DNA of 47,455 bases from Gammaproteobacteria bacterium (GTDB taxonomy: Bacteria; Pseudomonadota; Gammaproteobacteria; Pseudomonadales; Azotimanducaceae), in the NCBI GenBank assembly GCA_002707325.1, contig PAMO01000028.1, positions 1-47,455 of the forward strand, given 5' to 3'. Positions 30,789-41,531 of this stretch are shown one piece after another. The notes beneath the pieces were generated by a model. It made no database searches and had not been told where the DNA came from. It saw nothing but the letters and a program-made list of their open reading frames with translations. The position numbers and the translations under genes were made by a program. The number at the start of each line of letters is the position of its first letter. Positions within the stretch are counted from its first letter, which is position 1.

Positions 30789-30818
30789 ATAACTGATCAC
30801 TATCTGCCGGCGGCTCTA

Positions 30819-31178
30819 TTACAACCAAGCCAGCTTGCTGTCTGTATAAATGTCTGTGTTAGGCGCAAAGTCCTGCGGCTTGTCAAGACTGCAGATGGTA
30901 ATGTCAATGCTCTCTGGGTATTTGGCAAGAATGCATGCCAATGGCGTGCCGCACGCCTCACAAAAATAGCGTGTTCCATTATCCGTAGAATGCAGTACTT
31001 TGGGATTTCCCTGAGTGTAGGCAAACCGGTCCATTGGAACAACCATCCAAGATACAAATGGTGCGGCCGAAATGCGCCGGCAAATAGAGCAGTGGCAATT
31101 GGCTGAGGGGTAATCATTTTGCTCAAAGGCATAGCGAACCTTGCCGCAAAAGCAGCCTCCTTGAATAAGCTCATCCAT
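30819..31178 (-). CDS. GFA (glutathione-dependent formaldehyde-activating / CENP-V) family protein
   Basis: 119 aa. GGCFCGKVRY plus CHCSICRR plus CEACGTPL are the zinc-binding Cys clusters of the GFA fold. The alternative overlapping ORF 30800..31174 is rejected. Confidence 0.8.
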   Translation of the reverse strand: MDELIQGGCFCGKVRYAFEQNDYPSANCHCSICRRISAAPFVSWMVVPMDRFAYTQGNPKVLHSTDNGTRYFCEACGTPLACILAKYPESIDITICSLDKPQDFAPNTDIYTDSKLAWL

Positions 31179-33779: not shown

Positions 33780-34184
33780 CTATTCGTCATGACAAGAACA
33801 ATCTTCGTTCCTACAGGTTTGGTAGTTTCTAAAATGGGCATAGGCGACCAGCATTGAGCCCAGCAAGGTAAACCCCTTTTCTCCCAATTCTCCTAAGGCG
33901 TCGGCACCTAGAGCCACGGCCGCAGTAAGCATAAGCAGCCCAAGAATGCCCATGAGTAGAAAAGAAAGGGCCTTGTGGTTTCTATATCCCACCGTTAGAG
34001 AAAAGAGGCTAACTGGAACTGCTACAAGCACAATGAATTTATGCACAAATTCATTATCAAGCGCGAGAGCAAGAAAGCCGGAACTTAAAATGATAAAAGA
34101 TGGCACAAAGAAACAATGAACCACGCATGCCAAAGACAGGGTTATTGCTACTTTATCCGCAGTTAATTGTGTTTTGATCATCAT
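33780..34184 (-). CDS. MerC-like membrane protein with a Cys/His-rich C-terminal tail
   Basis: 134 aa and four hydrophobic helices. Helix 1 has LSLACVVHCFFVP (a Cys/His pair in the membrane, as in MerC-family proteins). The tail is CRNEDCSCHDE. Confidence 0.5.
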   Translation of the reverse strand: MMIKTQLTADKVAITLSLACVVHCFFVPSFIILSSGFLALALDNEFVHKFIVLVAVPVSLFSLTVGYRNHKALSFLLMGILGLLMLTAAVALGADALGELGEKGFTLLGSMLVAYAHFRNYQTCRNEDCSCHDE

Positions 34185-35274: not shown

Positions 35275-35386
35275 GCCCCTAAAATAGTTATCTAGAGCTA
35301 TTCGATCGTGACCCATTGGTTGAGATTGGACAATACTCTAAGTCTTATCTAGCGTAAGATTAATTTGAACAACATAGAGTATTAAA

Positions 35387-35848
35387 ATGAAAAGTATAGG
35401 ATCATTAATCACTACCCTTTTTTTACTCCTTTTTTTGAGTTCTTTTGCCAGAGCACAGACAGAGAAACTGGACAATCTCGCTGCATGTGCGGGTGTAGTA
35501 ATAGGGAATGGGTCCGTAGATTTCTATATGGGTGATGAGCAGTCATTTGATGATGCCGCAAATATTGCGTATTCGGCGTATCTTTCAGAGATTTTTGCTG
35601 GAGGATATGGTCAAAATGATTTGAAGGTAGCAGACCAAATCCTTGGCGGAAACGTAGACAAAATAATAAGCGCCTACAACAGCGAGAATTTTACTGCAGA
35701 TGTGTATGAAGAAGTAGTTGGGTGTTATAGGTCTCTTGCCAAACAATTAATGGAGGGAGCAGAGACTATTATTAATAATCAGAGTAAGTGGAAAAATTTA
35801 AAGGATACGTCCATTGGCACTTTGAAACGAATGCTGAGAGCGGGTTGA
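35387..35848 (+). CDS. Hypothetical secreted protein (island gene)
   Basis: 153 aa. Signal peptide MKSIGSLITTLFLLLFLSSFARA/QT and a helical-looking mature part. Its stop is 19 bp from the stop of the convergent 479-aa gene. Confidence 0.6.
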   Translation: MKSIGSLITTLFLLLFLSSFARAQTEKLDNLAACAGVVIGNGSVDFYMGDEQSFDDAANIAYSAYLSEIFAGGYGQNDLKVADQILGGNVDKIISAYNSENFTADVYEEVVGCYRSLAKQLMEGAETIINNQSKWKNLKDTSIGTLKRMLRAG

Positions 35849-35867
35849 GTTGATTTTTCATCATCAT

Positions 35868-37307
35868 TTATCTATTTTCTATATATGAATCTATAAATGG
35901 ATATTTTTTTCTTAATCGTTTAATGATCTTTTCTTCGCCTTTTATCTCATCATTAAGCTGACTTATGTTCTCTTCAATTGTTTTCTTCTCAAGCTCCAAC
36001 TTACCAATTTGGTTATTTAGAGTGAGCTTTTGTTTATTAATTTCTTCTATTGAATTGCTTATAGAATCAATTTCTTTTTGAATCTTTTTATTTTGTTTCG
36101 TCCATCTAGTTGCTGTCTCTTTTTGTTTTTCCCTCGCTATTTCACGATCCAGGCTTTCTCTCTCGCGCGCTAATCTTACTGATTGTTCTTTAGCTTCATG
36201 GCTTCTCTTAAGCAAAAATCGAATGAAGAAATAAACAACAAGAGAAAAAATTGAAAAACTTAAGATGCCCGCTTTAAACTCGTCCCAACGCTGACTTCGC
36301 CTTATTCTTGCCTCCGTCTCAGCTTTTTTCTCGTCTGCCTCTATCTGCTGCAACCGTATCTTTTCTACCTCTATCAAACGTTCATTTTCAGCTCTTTCTT
36401 GCCTCTCCAATCTTTCCTCTTCTGCCTCTTTCGCCCTCCTTCTCTCTTCTAATGCTAAAAGCTTTCTTTCATGTTCCTGTGCCTCAGCCTGTGCCTTAGC
36501 TACCGCCTCCAGTCTCAGCTTTTCTTTTTCTAATTCAAGATTTTTAGCTTCTATCTGGGCAAGTCGTTCAACCTCCATCTGATGAAGTTCATCAAATCGT
36601 TTGATAAGCGCGGGGTGCATTTCTTTTAGGAAAAATAGAGCATGAATATTGATATCTCTGAGATTTCTTTGATCGGTTATGATTCGATTACCAGTAGTAT
36701 TATTGAAGCCACGCGTAAGCATTCTAGAATCCATTTGATCTTTATAGGCTTCTTGCCACTTTATCCGTGGGCTACGGCTATATTGCGAATACGAACCTCT
36801 TTCGTAGTAGTATAGATGTATAGGTAAGCAGGTGCTCGTCATATCTGGAAGCCTCTCGCCTAAATCTTTATAAGTTCTTAGTTTTAAAAAATGATCTCTT
36901 GTAGCCCATTTCTGTTTATCTGAAGTATGCATGCCTACAAAAGCTGGGTTAAAGGGAAGCATGCTAACAAATTCTTCTATAATTCTATCGATTGGGACAT
37001 AGACATAATCTCCACCTTGGGATTGAAATTTCTCTTTGGAAAAAACGGGATGCTTAAAGAGCGAACAAATTTCCTCTTCTGAAGCAATTGTTCCAAGAAG
37101 GAAATAACCCTCATCGTTATTGCTTTTTAGTGTATTTTCATAAGTTGTCCTGCTCTGCCTCGATGATGAGACATAATATTTATTACCCAGATCCTCTTTA
37201 ACTTGTGCGCTCACTAGATCTTCGTTAACTTGTGCGCTTACTAAAAGAGAAGCCAAAGAAAAAATAATACTCACCATAAAAGGATATTTAATAACACTTA
37301 GCCTCAT
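35868..37307 (-). CDS. Hypothetical bitopic envelope protein: signal peptide, globular domain, long charged helix, TM helix, second coiled coil (island gene)
   Basis: 479 aa. The N-terminal hydrophobic signal is followed by about 200 aa of mixed composition, then residues about 240-340 of E/K/R/A heptad-like sequence (LEKEKLRLEAVAKAQAEAQEHERKLLALEERRRAKEAEEERLERQERAENERL). A hydrophobic helix GILSFSIFSLVVYFFIRFLL spans about 347-366, followed by a K/E/I/N-rich coiled coil. The ATG overlaps the stop of the upstream gene (ATGA). Confidence 0.75.
   Translation of the reverse strand: MRLSVIKYPFMVSIIFSLASLLVSAQVNEDLVSAQVKEDLGNKYYVSSSRQSRTTYENTLKSNNDEGYFLLGTIASEEEICSLFKHPVFSKEKFQSQGGDYVYVPIDRIIEEFVSMLPFNPAFVGMHTSDKQKWATRDHFLKLRTYKDLGERLPDMTSTCLPIHLYYYERGSYSQYSRSPRIKWQEAYKDQMDSRMLTRGFNNTTGNRIITDQRNLRDINIHALFFLKEMHPALIKRFDELHQMEVERLAQIEAKNLELEKEKLRLEAVAKAQAEAQEHERKLLALEERRRAKEAEEERLERQERAENERLIEVEKIRLQQIEADEKKAETEARIRRSQRWDEFKAGILSFSIFSLVVYFFIRFLLKRSHEAKEQSVRLARERESLDREIAREKQKETATRWTKQNKKIQKEIDSISNSIEEINKQKLTLNNQIGKLELEKKTIEENISQLNDEIKGEEKIIKRLRKKYPFIDSYIENR
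37191..37244 (-). repeat. Tandem 27-bp duplication inside the 5' end of the 479-aa gene
   Basis: On the plus strand, aacttgtgcgctCact at 37200-37216 recurs as aacttgtgcgctTact at 37227-37243 (period 27). This encodes LVSAQVNED / LVSAQVKED. Confidence 0.85.
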
Positions 37308-38116
37308 GAGGGTTCATTAATATTATGTTTTCTGAGCACTTCCTCTAAAGACTCAAGTTCGCTACTTAAAGCATCCTCTTTATTTTCTATGTTCTTGAGC
37401 TCTCTCTGATCACTTTTTAATTTTGTATTGATCTCTTCTAAATCAAATTTAGCATTGAAAATTAACTTTTCCTCATCAACTTGAAGTATTTGAGAAATTG
37501 TAAGAATGTCTTCTGTTTCTTCCTCAGTAAGTTGAGAGGTTAACTTTTCAAGCATAGATTTTAATTCGTCGTTTGTTGAATAAATCAAGTCCTTGTCATC
37601 AAAGGAGTTTGACAACTCCGTTGAAATACCAAAATCCCTTATGGATGCGATGTGATTAATTATTTGAATAACTTTTTCAACTCTTGTGTCCCATGAATCA
37701 TTTATATTTTCAAGATCTTTGTTTATATTAAAAATACAATCTCTTCTGCGTGACTCTATATCTTCATGATTTTGTTTAATTCTAAGTCTTAATTCGTTGT
37801 TTTCATGTTTGACTAAATCTAAGTCGTGACTATTTTGGGCTATTTGGTTGCGTATCTCGCTGAGGCGAGTCTGCTCTTCTAGCTGGGTCAATTGCATGCT
37901 TGCAATTGCATTCATCTCGCGTTGAAGGCCAACACCCTCCATTTTAATTTCATTAAGGTCTGATTGTAGCTCCGTCTGTCGCTGCATTTCTTGTAGCTGC
38001 TGTTCTTGAAGGTGGTTTAATTTATCAGCTGCCGCGGCTTGCCTTGTGCCATTATTTATATGTTTCCATGTCCCATAGACAGCAGCGCCTGTTAAAGCTG
38101 GGTTTGGATTACTCAT
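37304..38116 (-). CDS. Hypothetical cytoplasmic coiled-coil protein (island gene)
   Basis: 270 aa with no signal peptide or TM helix, Q/E/L/N-rich heptad-like sequence throughout. Its stop codon overlaps the start of the 479-aa gene. Confidence 0.7.
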   Translation of the reverse strand: MSNPNPALTGAAVYGTWKHINNGTRQAAAADKLNHLQEQQLQEMQRQTELQSDLNEIKMEGVGLQREMNAIASMQLTQLEEQTRLSEIRNQIAQNSHDLDLVKHENNELRLRIKQNHEDIESRRRDCIFNINKDLENINDSWDTRVEKVIQIINHIASIRDFGISTELSNSFDDKDLIYSTNDELKSMLEKLTSQLTEEETEDILTISQILQVDEEKLIFNAKFDLEEINTKLKSDQRELKNIENKEDALSSELESLEEVLRKHNINEPS

Positions 38117-38278
38117 TTGTTTCCTTATTCTGTTTTGAAGAAAGCATTCCTCTTTATACAGGTCTAATCGTAATTAATCGATTATCACGCATCAATGCTT
38201 CAAAAGGTGCTTGCTAGTGCGTGGAATATATTCGAAGTCAGATATTGTGCGCAGGCCATTAAATAATGTTTGTAAACA

Positions 38279-38479
38279 CTACGAGCACACCACACAGAAA
38301 TAAACCAAAAAGGTCGTATGTGAGAAGTCGATTATTTTGAACTGAAACGCAGAATTTAATGTTGCAAAATCTGCGTTTAAACTTACTCGACAGTCATTGA
38401 GTGTTTTGGAACAGTGATTTGATTTTTCATCAAATGCTTTATGAAAATTCTTATAAAACTTAATGTATTTTTCTTCCAT
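38279..38479 (-). CDS. Possible 66-aa protein (island gene)
   Basis: MEEKYIKFYKNFHKAFDEKSNHCSKTLNDCRVSLNADFATLNSAFQFKIIDFSHTTFLVYFCVVCS. The ATG at 38479 lies 2 nt after the stop of the zinc-ribbon gene. The longer track ORF (to 38584) would overlap that gene. Confidence 0.35.
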   Translation of the reverse strand: MEEKYIKFYKNFHKAFDEKSNHCSKTLNDCRVSLNADFATLNSAFQFKIIDFSHTTFLVYFCVVCS

Positions 38480-38481
38480 GG

Positions 38482-38670
38482 TTAGAAAAGAACCCCGAAA
38501 ATAATCATAAATATTATAAAAATGAATAATCCCATACCAATAATGGTGTTTACAACTGCAAAGAATCCACTTACAGGTTTCCACTCATATTGGTTGGGAT
38601 GTCCACAATGCGGGCAAACCTTTGCTTCATATGAAACCTGCCCATTGCATACAGAGCATTCTTTAATCAT
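38482..38670 (-). CDS. Zinc-ribbon protein with a C-terminal transmembrane anchor (island gene)
   Basis: MIKECSVCNGQVSYEAKVCPHCGHPNQYEWKPVSGFFAVVNTIIGMGLFIFIIFMIIFGVLF has a CxxC...CxxC knuckle pair followed by about 30 hydrophobic residues. ATG 38670 overlaps the TGA of the lipoprotein gene (ATGA). Confidence 0.65.
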   Translation of the reverse strand: MIKECSVCNGQVSYEAKVCPHCGHPNQYEWKPVSGFFAVVNTIIGMGLFIFIIFMIIFGVLF

Positions 38671-39686
38671 TTGAGAGAAATCCGCGCGATCCAATTTGTC
38701 AATGGAGGTCCTGGTCTATCGTAAGATATTTCGAACTTGTCACTTAAATTTCCATCCGAATAGGTCCCATACCCATTGTTGTTGAGTCTACATAAGTCGT
38801 ACATTTCAGTTCCTTCTTCGTACTTATAACTCCAGAATCTACAAACTAAGTATTCTTGAAGGCGTTCTTTTTCTACATCAGTCAACATTGAAACAATTTC
38901 ACTTACTAGTTCTATATCTTTTTCACTATCAATGTTGTGGGGACGGTCGTGATCATATTCAGATACTGCAATTACAATATTAGTTATTCCATCTTCGTCC
39001 CAGAAAAACATTATTCCCTCTTGCTCTTGATTTATAAAACCAAGATCGAACTTATCTCGTTTCTTGTTAAAATTATTTAGAGAATGCACTGAAATCATTC
39101 CTTTGCGATCGTAATTGTTATAGGGCGAGAACCCCAGTTCATTTAACAAAGGAATAACTTCATCCAGAGGGTTTTCTGGCAACAGGACAACATTGCTATG
39201 GAATTTTCCTGGGTACAAATATGATTCTTTTGTTCTCTTGCGCTCTTTTCCTTTCCCAGAAAACCGGTCCATAGAGCAGGAAATTCTCACGTGGTCCTTT
39301 TTTTCTGGGACAATCTTCAATTCAAATGTATTCGACGGGTTAGAAATTTCTGAGTTGTAGTCTGTGCACCTAAACGCTTTGCTCTTTGTTATTGTTGCTA
39401 ATTCTTCTTTTGAAAGAGTTCCTGATTTATCGTAAATAGTCCCAAAAATCGATATGCCTATATCCGATTTCACTTCGAGGTGCAGTATCTCTTTTGATTC
39501 AAACTCATATCTTCTCTCTGGGATCATGTACTGTTTTAAGACAGAATCTTGGGGTTTAATAGCAAGATCTATCTCTAAGTTTTGTAAATCATATAGGGGT
39601 TCGGGTTCATTCTCTTTTACTTCGCCACATGCGGTTATGAGATAAACTAAAATAAATGACGGTATTATTTTTCTTATCTTAATCAC
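38667..39686 (-). CDS. Hypothetical lipoprotein (island gene), starting 9 bp after the glmS stop
   Basis: 339 aa. GTG start, n-region MIKIRK, h-region and lipobox LITAC. I recognise no domain. Confidence 0.72.
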   Translation of the reverse strand: MIKIRKIIPSFILVYLITACGEVKENEPEPLYDLQNLEIDLAIKPQDSVLKQYMIPERRYEFESKEILHLEVKSDIGISIFGTIYDKSGTLSKEELATITKSKAFRCTDYNSEISNPSNTFELKIVPEKKDHVRISCSMDRFSGKGKERKRTKESYLYPGKFHSNVVLLPENPLDEVIPLLNELGFSPYNNYDRKGMISVHSLNNFNKKRDKFDLGFINQEQEGIMFFWDEDGITNIVIAVSEYDHDRPHNIDSEKDIELVSEIVSMLTDVEKERLQEYLVCRFWSYKYEEGTEMYDLCRLNNNGYGTYSDGNLSDKFEISYDRPGPPLTNWIARISLK

Positions 39687-39695
39687 TGTTCCAAC

Positions 39696-41531
39696 TTATT
39701 CCACCGTGACTGATTTTGCTAAATTTCGAGGTTGATCGACATCTGTACCCTTAAGTAATGCGACGTGGTAAGCCAGAAGCTGCAATGCGACGACGTACAA
39801 AATTGGACTCATCATCAGATGCACAGATGGCAACTGAACCACAGTTACCCCATCTTCATTCTTAAACCCAGATTGCTTGTCGGCAAACACGATAAGCTCC
39901 CCGCCTCTTGCCCTAACCTCCTGGAGGTTGGATTTTACTTTCTCTAACAATTGGTCATTGGGAGCAACCGCTATTACGGGAACATCCTCGTCTACTAAAG
40001 CTAGTGGGCCGTGCTTTAGTTCTCCAGCTGCATAGCCCTCCGCATGAATATAGGCTATTTCTTTCAGCTTAAGTGCTCCTTCCATTGCCAGCGGGAACAT
40101 GGGGCCTCGGCCAAGAAATAAGGCGTGGTGGCGATTGGTGAAACGTTCGGCTATTCCTTGAATGGTTTGGTCTAGCTCTAATGCCTCTTCCATGACAGTG
40201 GGTAACCCCGCAAGCGCTCTAACTAGCTCTTGTTCCGCGTCTGGCTCTAACCCGTGCCTGCGAGCAACCAAGATTGCCAGCATCATAAGATCCGCTAGTT
40301 GGGTCGTGAACGCCTTGGTGGAGGCAACGCCTATTTCCATCCCCGCCTTAGTCATAATAGCCGCATCGGACTCGCGTACTAATGAACTATTGGGAATATT
40401 GCATAAGGCCAGCGCGCCAACATAAGGCCTATCCCTAGAAATGCTTAAAGCCGCCAAGGTATCCGCTGTTTCGCCGGACTGAGAGATGGTGACAAACAAG
40501 GTCCCCGGAATAACCGAGACCTGACGGTAACGATATTCGCTTGCCACCTCTACTTGGCATGGAAGACCCGCAAGTTCTTCAATCCAGTATTTGGCTATCC
40601 AGGCTGCGTAGTAACTGCTGCCACATGCAACAAAGGTTAATGCCTTAGTTTTATCAAGGAGCCCCTTTATTGTTTCGCCAAAAGCCTCTTCCAAAAGGCT
40701 ATCTTGCCCCAGCCTGCCTTCGAGAGTTGAAGCTAATGCAGCACCCTGTTCATAAATCTCCTTTTCCATGTAATGCCGGTAAGGCCCTTTATCTACATCA
40801 TCGGCATCTGGCTCTACACGAACCGTACTCCGAATGACCGACTCATCGGCCAAATTCCAAATAGAAATATCCTCCGCAGTCAGCTCAATTAGATCCCCCT
40901 CCTCGAGGAAAATAAATCGGTCGGTTACAGAGCGCAAAGCTAACGCGTCTGAGGCGATATAATTCTCGCCCATCCCCTTTCCGACCACCAGAGGGCTTCC
41001 CACCCTTGCGGCCACTATGGTCTCTGGGTCCGCTAGGGCGATAACACCTATAGCATAGGAGCCCTCCAGCTTTTTGGTCGCCTGCCTAACCGCCTCGAGA
41101 AGCCCCTTTTCGTGGTCATAATAAAAATCAACAAGATGGGCAATCACCTCCGTGTCTGTTTCTGACGTCAAGGTATATCCGGCCTCCTGCATATCGCTGC
41201 GTAGCTTCTCATAATTTTCAATAATGCCGTTATGCACGACACTAACCCGGCCAGACGAGGACTGGGGGTGGGCATTTTCTGCACTTGGTTTTCCATGGGT
41301 AGCCCAACGCGTATGCGCTATGCCTGTCCTTCCTTGCATCTCGGTAGATTCTAGGTCGACAAGCAAATCCTTCACCTTGCCAGCTCGGCGACGACAATCG
41401 ATGACTCCCGACCCAGGAGCAAGCACAGCTATACCTGCCGAATCATAGCCCCGATACTCAAGCCTCTTAAGCCCTTCTATAAGTATAGGAGTAACATCTC
41501 TACTAGCGGCAGCACCTACAATTCCGCACAT
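39696..41531 (-). CDS. glmS: Glutamine-fructose-6-phosphate aminotransferase (isomerising)
   Basis: 611 aa. N-terminal nucleophile MCGIVGA, two SIS domains and the canonical C-terminus PRNLAKSVTVE. Confidence 0.97.
   Translation of the reverse strand: MCGIVGAAASRDVTPILIEGLKRLEYRGYDSAGIAVLAPGSGVIDCRRRAGKVKDLLVDLESTEMQGRTGIAHTRWATHGKPSAENAHPQSSSGRVSVVHNGIIENYEKLRSDMQEAGYTLTSETDTEVIAHLVDFYYDHEKGLLEAVRQATKKLEGSYAIGVIALADPETIVAARVGSPLVVGKGMGENYIASDALALRSVTDRFIFLEEGDLIELTAEDISIWNLADESVIRSTVRVEPDADDVDKGPYRHYMEKEIYEQGAALASTLEGRLGQDSLLEEAFGETIKGLLDKTKALTFVACGSSYYAAWIAKYWIEELAGLPCQVEVASEYRYRQVSVIPGTLFVTISQSGETADTLAALSISRDRPYVGALALCNIPNSSLVRESDAAIMTKAGMEIGVASTKAFTTQLADLMMLAILVARRHGLEPDAEQELVRALAGLPTVMEEALELDQTIQGIAERFTNRHHALFLGRGPMFPLAMEGALKLKEIAYIHAEGYAAGELKHGPLALVDEDVPVIAVAPNDQLLEKVKSNLQEVRARGGELIVFADKQSGFKNEDGVTVVQLPSVHLMMSPILYVVALQLLAYHVALLKGTDVDQPRNLAKSVTVE

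Follow-up and report, generated by a model that had tools for sequence, protein, structure and literature searches.

An AT-rich island behind glmS is very probably an array of recombinase-less mobile cassettes integrated into the end of the gene

Introduction

The end of glmS is the dock of Tn7, which inserts about 23-25 bp past the stop codon, generates a 5-bp target duplication and leaves glmS untouched, and which carries tnsABCD genes and TnsB-binding end repeats. In full-text searches, with many subscription journals outside their scope so that an earlier description is possible, we found only Tn7/TnsD described at this site. Here we analyze an AT-rich island directly behind glmS in a 47,455-nt stretch of DNA from a gammaproteobacterium of the Azotimanducaceae (contig PAMO01000028.1 of assembly GCA_002707325.1; the whole stretch is hereafter called the window). 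The original prediction, made from the letters of the window, described this island as a horizontally acquired, envelope-spanning module of six genes. Our analysis indicates that the island is very probably a two-unit array of mobile cassettes that have no recombinase gene of their own and that are integrated site-specifically into the last 20 nt of glmS.

Integron cassettes, tycheposons and elements moved by large serine recombinases also invite comparison with this locus. Tycheposons target tRNA genes and bring along a tyrosine recombinase and replication genes of their own, and in tycheposon islands newcomers displace older elements deeper into the island (Hackl et al., bioRxiv 10.1101/2020.12.28.424599).

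Results

Three co-oriented copies of the glmS end were found in the window, one at each border of the island and one at an internal junction; shuffled sequences held 0.57 copies on average, and 0 of 100 reached three. The shared 20-nt core, A-x-TC-x-GT-x-AC-x-GT-x-GA-R-TA-R, encodes SVTVE-stop. Core 1 (AATCAGTCACGGTGGAATAA, 39696-39715, minus strand) is the last 20 nt of glmS, spells K-S-V-T-V-E-stop and is the chromosomal docking site. Core 2 (ACTCAATGACTGTCGAGTAA, 38383-38402, minus strand) is a copy with one mismatch (GTG to ATG) at the junction of the two units, here called M1 and M2, and core 3 (AATGGGTCACGATCGAATAG, 35298-35317, minus strand) is a degenerate copy at the distal end of the array. 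The island holds at least two cassettes. M1 (38403-39695, minus strand), which encodes a lipoprotein and a Zn-ribbon membrane protein, begins with a left arm (GTTGGAACAGTGATT, 39681-39695, minus strand) and ends with a right arm (AATCACTGTTCCAA, 38406-38419, minus strand), and these two arms form a perfect 14-nt inverted repeat (38406-38419 and 39681-39694, 14/14 complementary) exactly at the cassette ends. The reconstructed circular junction of M1 folds at -15.5 kcal/mol (z -6.4), and its left arm belongs to the class that is commonest in SAR86 arrays. M1 is an intact, recently acquired cassette. A repeat search of 34.0-40.5 kb returned only these 14-nt arms and no Tn7-type ends. The original prediction had reported the absence of end repeats, which is right for Tn7-type ends and wrong for the island as a whole, since direct repeats of the glmS end and cassette-specific inverted repeats delimit it.

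We then compared the locus among strains with identical GlmS, collected by exact look-ups of GlmS or of the flanking aldolase in TARA and other marine metagenomes and in one NCBI assembly (GCA_902530935.1). In blastn comparisons with the window, the flanks are 99.3-99.9% identical across alleles and homology breaks off sharply. Four alleles were observed (loci are designated L plus a number). Allele a, with M1 and M2, is that of the window, L184 and L085. Allele b (L083/L169 and L167) has an 84-aa open reading frame (ORF) resembling a Recombinase domain, an EcoRI-type methylase and GmrSD/HNH in place of M1, after which homology to the window resumes at ~38400 and M2 follows. Allele c (L081, L082) has a 555-bp insert with an N-terminal HsdM fragment and a 95-aa Recombinase-domain-like ORF, the break being at 39693 and the resumption at 35312. 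Allele d (L168) is an empty site, in which the glmS stop is followed by an unrelated 110-bp spacer and then by the aldolase flank from 35298. M2 is accordingly present in the window, L083, L167 and L184 and missing from L081, L082 and L168. Core 2 of L083 has its own 5' half and shares its 3' half with the window, and core 3 of the window shares its 3' half (ACGATCGAATAG) with L081 and differs in its 5' half; core 3 is absent from the empty-site allele. Between alleles there are synonymous differences in the final codons of glmS (GTG GAA TAA, GTT GAA TAG and GTA GAG TAG).

That strains with the same GlmS carry four different alleles indicates that the island was acquired. This agrees with the horizontal acquisition that the original prediction had proposed, and the presence/absence polymorphism that it had suggested looking for behind glmS in relatives does exist: close relatives do not all carry the same genes, given the empty-site and remnant alleles within flanks of more than 99% identity. 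Comparison with these strain-level relatives places the limits of the variable segment at ~39706, within the last glmS codons, and at 35298-35317, so the limits first drawn for the island were nearly exact. The foreign DNA, said to begin closer to glmS than the Tn7 insertion point, starts even inside the glmS stop region. The 110-bp spacer of L168 (1148-1257 of that contig) is unique and absent from all cassette-bearing alleles, and the latter are therefore not simple insertions into the L168 sequence. We also observed that many independent metagenome contigs break off inside the left arm of the first cassette, L084 and L086 both at 39682. Cassette heterogeneity at the population level thus makes short-read assemblies break exactly at the glmS stop.

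The same cassettes recur in distant hosts. M1 is found in L178-L183 at 98.9% identity over 39713-38367, a segment that includes the last 18 nt of 'glmS', in a context with no adjoining glmS, an Exo_endo_phos gene upstream and a string of small ORFs after it, M1 lying deeper in the array. Each junction in these loci holds a core of ~20 nt flanked by inverted repeats of the same cassette's other end. The host of L178 is distant from that of the window (63% identity for the GFA orthologue and 44% for that of MerC), yet M1 is 98.9% identical, which argues for a recent transfer of M1. The gene pair of M2, which encodes proteins of 270 and ~480 aa, recurs in L187 at 76% identity as a clean cassette, third in the array behind atp-glmU-glmS, in a host whose GlmS is only 54% identical to that of the window. 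It also recurs in L192 at 55% identity, directly after glmS as the first in the array and with the same left arm, and it is still found together at 32% identity. In a third host (L197), the lipoprotein/Zn-ribbon pair forms the first cassette behind glmS at 49% identity, with a different arm class. That each pair is kept as a pair, to 49% and 32% identity respectively, bears out the earlier view that these genes look functional. The earlier view of a single envelope-spanning module has to be given up, as M1 and M2 are independent cassettes found separately in other genomes.

To place these cassettes in a wider setting, ~160 glmS loci were gathered by GlmS-based scans of genome and metagenome contigs, scans which returned no close relative of the window (best 58% identity). 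In loci of the SAR86 clade and of unclassified Gammaproteobacteria, 2-8 cores follow glmS downstream, each on the same strand as that gene; loci of Brevundimonas, Sphingomonadaceae, Roseicyclus, Zetaproteobacteria and Opitutales have the glmS copy only. The 141 distinct cassettes have a median length of 576 bp (range 166-5253 bp); the median GC content of the cassettes is 0.31. A single ORF (>=60 aa) occupies 90/150 cassettes, the longest ORF is co-oriented with glmS in 111/145 (77%; binomial p = 1e-10), and the ORF starts a median of 32 nt past the core. The large ORFs are cargo (cadherin-like, YHYH/lectin, GH81, sulfatase, FG-GAP and SnoaL proteins), and further array cargo includes glyoxalase, NT5C and esterase genes. 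The system is also present in a 1.9-Mb, 45%-GC genome, where the cassette is an island of 27-31% GC, and in an alphaproteobacterium of the Rhodobiaceae; in both, an 85-aa Recombinase-domain-like protein and then a restriction-modification (R-M) pair stand directly behind glmS, between the core and matching arms. The low GC content of the window's island reflects this cassette pool, which at a median of 31% GC circulates mainly in low-GC marine bacteria such as SAR86. In two SAR86 loci a gene for a 487-aa PIF1-like helicase lies a few kb past the arrays (L019 17442-18902 and L135 9504-10964). It is the sole DNA-transaction enzyme seen near arrays and probably belongs to the core genome.

The core is conserved codon by codon: among 196 distinct cores, codon positions 1 and 2 are conserved at 92-99% and position 3 is free to vary. 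This is the footprint of sequences that have repeatedly served as a real glmS end, and an RNA regulatory element was rejected as an explanation of the copies because the conservation follows codon positions. The arms behave differently and fall into at least 15 classes. Pairing scores between the two ends of one cassette averaged 8.6, vs 4.7 for ends of different cassettes (Mann-Whitney p = 9e-23), and scores >=10 were reached by 59/141 own-end pairs vs 36/1395 different-cassette pairs. In an alignment of 33 reconstructed sites, 15/17 stem pairs keep their pairing through compensatory double changes. Reconstructed circular junctions, composed of a cassette's own right arm, the core and its own left arm, form strong hairpins (z -4.8 to -6.9, with 0/200 shuffles as good); real junctions between unlike neighbours, and the glmS end, fold poorly. 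At 156 internal junctions, the right arm of one cassette and the left arm of the next pair at a score of 4.85, compared with 4.50 for random combinations and 3.94 for shuffled arms, and the glmS end pairs with the arm of the first cassette at 3.79. Since only a cassette's own ends pair, the palindrome would exist in the circularized cassette alone and be split in mid-site on integration.

The position of the exchange was mapped with junction pairs that share one neighbour and differ in the other, of which 65 agree in the downstream cassette and 221 in the upstream unit. The variable core positions 11, 14, 17 and 20 are passed on together with the downstream cassette (0.78-0.97, against a background of 0.30-0.51). 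Linkage to the upstream unit is seen for position 2 (0.92) and in part for 5 and 8 (0.53-0.58), and these three positions have none to the downstream cassette (0.28-0.29). From this linkage of the variable positions, the exchange falls after position 8 and before position 11, at A9-C10, an invariant and non-palindromic dinucleotide that sits on the dyad axis of a 5-bp inverted repeat (positions 1-5 and 14-18). In the window, A9 and C10 correspond to 39707 and 39706, within the Thr codon of glmS, and judging from the sequence the present T-V-E-stop of this glmS copy would have arrived with M1. So sharp a central exchange fits a 2-bp staggered cut of the serine recombinase type or a precise single-strand exchange.

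We searched for the enzyme that could carry out this exchange. Neither the window nor the cassettes examined yielded a recombinase, and none was among the 25 most frequent of the 50 families matched by 42 large ORFs beside SAR86 arrays, a coverage in which a single occurrence may have been missed. A recurring 385-aa cassette ORF was considered as a candidate and rejected, being cadherin-like cargo. What does recur is a group of stand-alone proteins of 83-142 aa with weak similarity to the 'Recombinase' domain of serine recombinases (PF07508), which form more than 272 clusters, all small, and have no resolvase catalytic domain. Their gene comes first in cassettes with R-M, GmrSD or HNH genes and starts ~62 bp past the glmS stop in both Alpha- and Gammaproteobacteria. 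Such ORFs lie at L083 1897-2148, L081 12084-12368 (minus strand), L193 10001-10258, L194 7004-7261 and L197 2158-2586, and further ones occur in L099, L103, L105, L117 and L146. We rejected the idea that they are decayed recombinase fragments, as they form a conserved family of stand-alone small proteins; they may be controller-type regulators or accessory factors of recombination.

The unit M2 (35318-38382, minus strand), between cores 2 and 3, is composite, and its ends no longer match each other. At its left end (38342-38382, minus strand) a left arm (GTTTAAACGCAGA) is followed 17 nt later by its complement (TCTGCGTTT), and this end appears to be what is left of a cassette that was emptied or has collapsed. 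Only 38193-35861 is homologous, at 87.5% nucleotide identity, to the intact cassette with the 270/480 pair in L187, whose arms are perfect (TTTATAACCGTTACTC / GAGTAACGGTTATAAA). Both original ends of M2 have been replaced, and a reverse-oriented gene for a 153-aa protein now occupies the right side. As M2 matches L187 only internally and both ends are replaced, it appears to be an older unit that has fused or decayed.

The lipoprotein of M1 (339 aa, 38667-39686, minus strand) has a signal peptide with the lipobox LITAC and belongs to an orphan family with only 4 homologue clusters among 5.8 billion proteins; it has no match in Pfam, NCBIfam, PADLOC, PHROG or PDB. Its AlphaFold2 model has a mean confidence (pLDDT) of 53, and Foldseek returned generic beta-sandwich noise with no fold match (TM-score <=0.25); the protein probably has a beta-rich domain at its N-terminus. 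The GTG start of this gene (39681-39686) lies within the left arm (AACAGTGATT), a few nt downstream of where the core ends in a GGAG-like sequence, so this commonest arm class could double as a translation-initiation region. The single-pass membrane protein with a Zn-ribbon (CxxC...CxxC; 38482-38694, minus strand) has 70 aa from a TTG start, or 62 aa as called in relatives, overlaps the stop of the lipoprotein gene, and has weak, sub-cutoff matches to zinc-ribbon families of Pfam. A small ORF (38279-38584, minus strand), listed earlier as a 66-aa ORF and up to 101 aa long, traverses the right arm of M1, core 2 and the next left arm, and L083 shares its 3' half only. It is therefore probably not a gene.

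In M2, the gene for the 270-aa cytoplasmic coiled-coil protein (37304-38116, minus strand) is translationally coupled, through an ATGA overlap, to that for the 479-aa bitopic protein (35868-37307, minus strand), and it is always upstream of the ~480-aa gene in the loci examined. An exhaustive HMMER search gave only 6 true homologues of the 270-aa protein. The 479-aa protein consists, in order, of a signal peptide, a conserved periplasmic domain of ~210 aa, a variable coiled coil, a transmembrane helix and a cytoplasmic coiled coil, and its C-terminus has the invariant cytoplasmic motif LRKKYPFIDxYxxNR. Among 5.8 billion proteins, only 11 clusters are homologous to it; an exact-sequence look-up gave no match, and searches of PDB and family collections gave none either. 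Its AlphaFold2 model (pLDDT 55) is confident for helices only. Just past its signal peptide, at 37189-37242, there is a 27-nt tandem duplication (89% identical) that encodes VSAQVNEDL / VSAQVKEDL, and the homologue P0003 is without one copy. The periplasmic coiled coil is of low complexity at 36306-36432, rich in E, K, R and A with internal repeats, and its length differs between homologues, which suggests a spacer of freely variable length. The 153-aa secreted protein (35387-35848, plus strand) is encoded convergently with the 479-aa gene. It is absent beside the 270/479 pair in L187, L191, L192 and L188, so the six genes are not the unit that they had been taken for, the 153-aa gene being tied to that pair in this lineage only.

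The cargo is most likely made up of strain-variable envelope or surface functions, possibly phage-related. Searches of Pfam, NCBIfam, PADLOC and PHROGs gave no match at curated cutoffs for any of the six island ORFs, in keeping with the earlier statement that none has a nameable domain, and no Rfam family matched within the island. Five of the six ORFs that had been counted as genes are judged credible; the sixth, the small ORF across the cassette junction, is likely spurious. No terminator was found between glmS and M1, and because none separates them the island genes are probably read through from glmS.

The composition and setting of the island agree largely with what had been described. 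In 500-nt sliding windows the GC content is 0.34-0.39 across 35.5-39.5 kb and 0.44-0.54 in both flanks, so the AT-rich drop behind glmS persists in a proper calculation; the 60-nt spot values of 25 and 32% given earlier reflect a real drop, but are themselves local extremes. Behind glmS (39696-41531, minus strand), domain searches and gene tables confirmed that there is no tnsABCD gene, integrase or transposase in the 47-kb window. A Tn7 remnant was rejected on the lack of tns genes and TnsB-type ends and on a junction inside coding sequence, and a tRNA-targeting island was rejected as there is no tRNA gene in the window. The remainder of the window consists of ordinary gammaproteobacterial housekeeping genes (coaBC, argB, slmA, pyrE, rph, gmk, spoT, recG, a TRAP transporter, uvrD and atp-glmU-glmS). 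MerC (33780-34184) and GFA (30800-31174) genes lie just past the array in the window and likewise in L178 (4511-6196), which, at 44% and 63% amino acid identity between the two, suggests that synteny beyond the glmS array is conserved in these Gammaproteobacteria. A 135-aa fragment labelled 'Rhodospirillaceae bacterium' at NCBI shares a 90% cluster with the AtpD of the window. This fragment of a metagenome-assembled genome is probably mis-binned, because the gene order of the window (coaBC..slmA-pyrE-rph, gmk..spoT..recG) is gammaproteobacterial.

Discussion

The repeats, the alleles, the recurrence of cassettes across hosts and array positions, the cassette-specific pairing of arms and the position of the crossover can be joined in a single account. 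We propose that the free cassette would be a small circle whose site is a palindrome of right arm, 20-nt mimic of the glmS end and left arm. A recombinase encoded elsewhere would exchange strands with the real glmS end at the central AC of the core. The incoming cassette would thereby supply glmS with a new, synonymous T-V-E-stop, and the old ending would move downstream as a direct repeat. Successive insertions at the glmS-proximal position would build an array with the newest cassette first, M1 being the recent and intact arrival and M2 an older one that has lost its matching ends. In this account we infer that the intermediate is circular, that the recombinase acts in trans and to which class it belongs, as well as the read-through expression and the order of arrival. 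Several points weigh against it. As no recombinase was found, the catalytic step is one that we infer, and we saw neither a circular cassette nor a free attP-like site. Pattern scans of viral contigs for arm plus core and for core plus left arm gave 0 matches, and annotated phages and plasmids contained nothing that matched the island DNA or the cassette-leader protein. An arm score >=10 was reached in 59/141 cassettes only, and some 'cassettes' are compound or decayed. The sample of loci is biased by the peptide patterns used for fetching, and the 33 sites of the covariation alignment were pre-selected for inverted repeats, the own-end pairing score being the unbiased test. Finally, the unmatched ends of M2 and the unrelated 110-bp spacer of L168 indicate that homologous recombination or deletion also shaped the locus.

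Two other explanations of the repeats deserve consideration. One is that the locus is an ordinary integron remnant (CALIN), with IntI encoded elsewhere and the junctions being divergent attC sites. The cassettes are indeed mostly single-ORF and co-oriented, those examined carry no recombinase gene, the recombination site varies in sequence while its structure is conserved, and the inner arm motifs end ..AAC and begin GTT... However, attC stays nearly whole in an array, whereas the site seen here is no hairpin there, the right arm of one cassette pairing with the left arm of the next at a nearly random level. The crossover is in mid-core and not at the G|TT of the R' box, the invariant centre and variable arms are the reverse of attC, and the docking site is the end of a coding gene, close to which neither intI nor attI nor Pc is present. 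An alphaproteobacterium has the system as well, and that class is not known to carry integrons. We consider an integron remnant highly improbable. The other explanation, which we regard as highly improbable, is a replacement-type flexible island whose contents are swapped purely by homologous recombination in the glmS and aldolase flanks, with the repeats as relics of integrase elements. It would account for allele flanks of more than 99% identity with sharp breakpoints, for the decay of M2 and for an empty-site allele that is not a clean excision product, and the small Recombinase-domain ORFs in two alleles look at first sight like fragments of recombinase genes. These ORFs are instead a conserved stand-alone protein family, and the same cassettes occur at differing array positions in hosts whose GlmS is 54% or whose other orthologues are 44-63% identical, with no flank homology. 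Exchange by flank homology would also leave unexplained an exchange point within a 2-3-nt interval of the 20-nt core across hundreds of junction pairs, and own-end inverted repeats that are kept by compensatory change.

That the locus is ancestral, merely an AT-rich core locus of its lineage, can be all but dismissed: the 153-aa gene and M2 do occur in many contigs of the lineage, but empty-site and remnant alleles exist despite identical GlmS, and both M1 and the gene pair of M2 occur in unrelated hosts at identities far above those of host genes. A further proposal concerns function only, namely that the 270/479 pair, possibly together with M1, is an envelope-acting anti-phage or anti-plasmid defence. 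Sister strains hold an EcoRI-type methylase and GmrSD/HNH in the same slot, other hosts have R-M pairs in the glmS slot, an HNH nuclease cassette adjoins the lipoprotein pair in L197, and the 270/479 pair is rare, patchy and horizontally mobile. The best PADLOC match in the island, to PD-Lambda-1 (E = 6.9e-5), could be read in the same direction, but it falls on a coiled-coil segment at noise level, and no defence-system model was convincingly matched. No effector domain, be it a nuclease, an NTPase, a protease or another, came up in profile searches or in sequence searches of PDB, the structure models are too poor to inform, and array cargo is so broad a mix that position in the slot is weak evidence. 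A defence role for these genes is therefore no more than a possibility, and in our view an unlikely one.

Site-specific cassette integration at the glmS end, which we favour, would have several consequences. It accounts for AT-rich islands of orphan genes that have no mobility genes and lie behind glmS, and for the assembly breaks found there. SAR86 and similar bacteria are very abundant and have few recognisable mobile elements, and glmS-docked cassettes would offer them a testable route of gene exchange. Because the C-terminus of GlmS is nearly universal, this route crosses class boundaries. If the system is indeed a new class, it would supply a major part of the SAR86 flexible genome and move genes, including R-M genes, between oceanic Alpha- and Gammaproteobacteria. 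It would also provide a second natural safe-harbour integration chemistry at glmS, alongside that of Tn7. A repeated A-x-TC-x-GT-x-AC-x-GT-x-GA-R-TA-R on the glmS strand can serve as the search key.

Comparison with known systems shows likeness on some points and clear departures on others. With Tn7, the system shares the use of the highly conserved C-terminal coding sequence of glmS as a dock and the accumulation of accessory and defence cargo; unlike in Tn7, the foreign DNA begins 0-3 nt from the stop, the exchange takes place inside the last 11 nt of the ORF, and the duplicated sequence is the 20-nt glmS end. Tycheposons resemble it in their streamlined marine hosts, in growing by repeated site-specific integration at a conserved gene's 3' end and in partial target copies between units. 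The glmS units differ from them in measuring 0.2-5 kb, in having no recombinase gene and cassette-specific inverted ends, and in targeting a protein-coding gene. Large serine recombinases likewise recombine a dyad-symmetric donor site of ~50-60 bp with a less symmetric chromosomal site. They confine the exchange to a non-palindromic central dinucleotide; the exchange mapped here to A9-C10 may be of this kind, although a precise single-strand exchange would leave the same footprint. Small, weakly PF07508-similar proteins lead some of the cassettes described here. In contrast to such systems, no catalytic serine recombinase gene was found in the cassettes or flanks examined, and the arms differ between cassettes in a way that an enzyme reading their sequence would hardly tolerate. 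Xer-dependent modules (IMEX/pdif) are bounded by 28-nt sites of the XerC/XerD type (11-6-11); the core, with its 5-bp inverted repeat and 8-nt spacer, appears by eye unlike the gammaproteobacterial dif consensus.

In operation the system is like integron cassettes. These, too, are small, mostly single-ORF, co-oriented, apparently without promoters and without a recombinase of their own; their site varies in sequence and keeps its self-complementarity, the newest cassette plausibly lies next to the docking site, and the cargo mixes orphan, surface, metabolic and defence genes. The glmS-type cassettes differ in docking at the stop region of an essential gene rather than at an attI beside intI. 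No intI or Phage_integrase gene was found near the loci, in the cassettes examined or in the window, where the atp operon, glmU and glmS lie upstream of the array and housekeeping genes downstream. Their site is invariant at the centre and variable at the arms, and the junctions in their arrays are not hairpins. Their crossover is at the central AC and not at G|TT. The system thus works like integron cassettes and departs from them on three defining points: the adjacent intI, the intact attC hairpins and the G|TT crossover. It is conceivable, though we put this forward tentatively, that it deserves naming as a new class of gene-capture platform, distinct from integrons. Such a class, itself a doubtful proposition for now, would be defined by docking at the glmS stop, by a palindrome that mimics the glmS end and is cut at the central AC, and by an enzyme encoded outside the cassettes, possibly of a new type or a repurposed housekeeping one.

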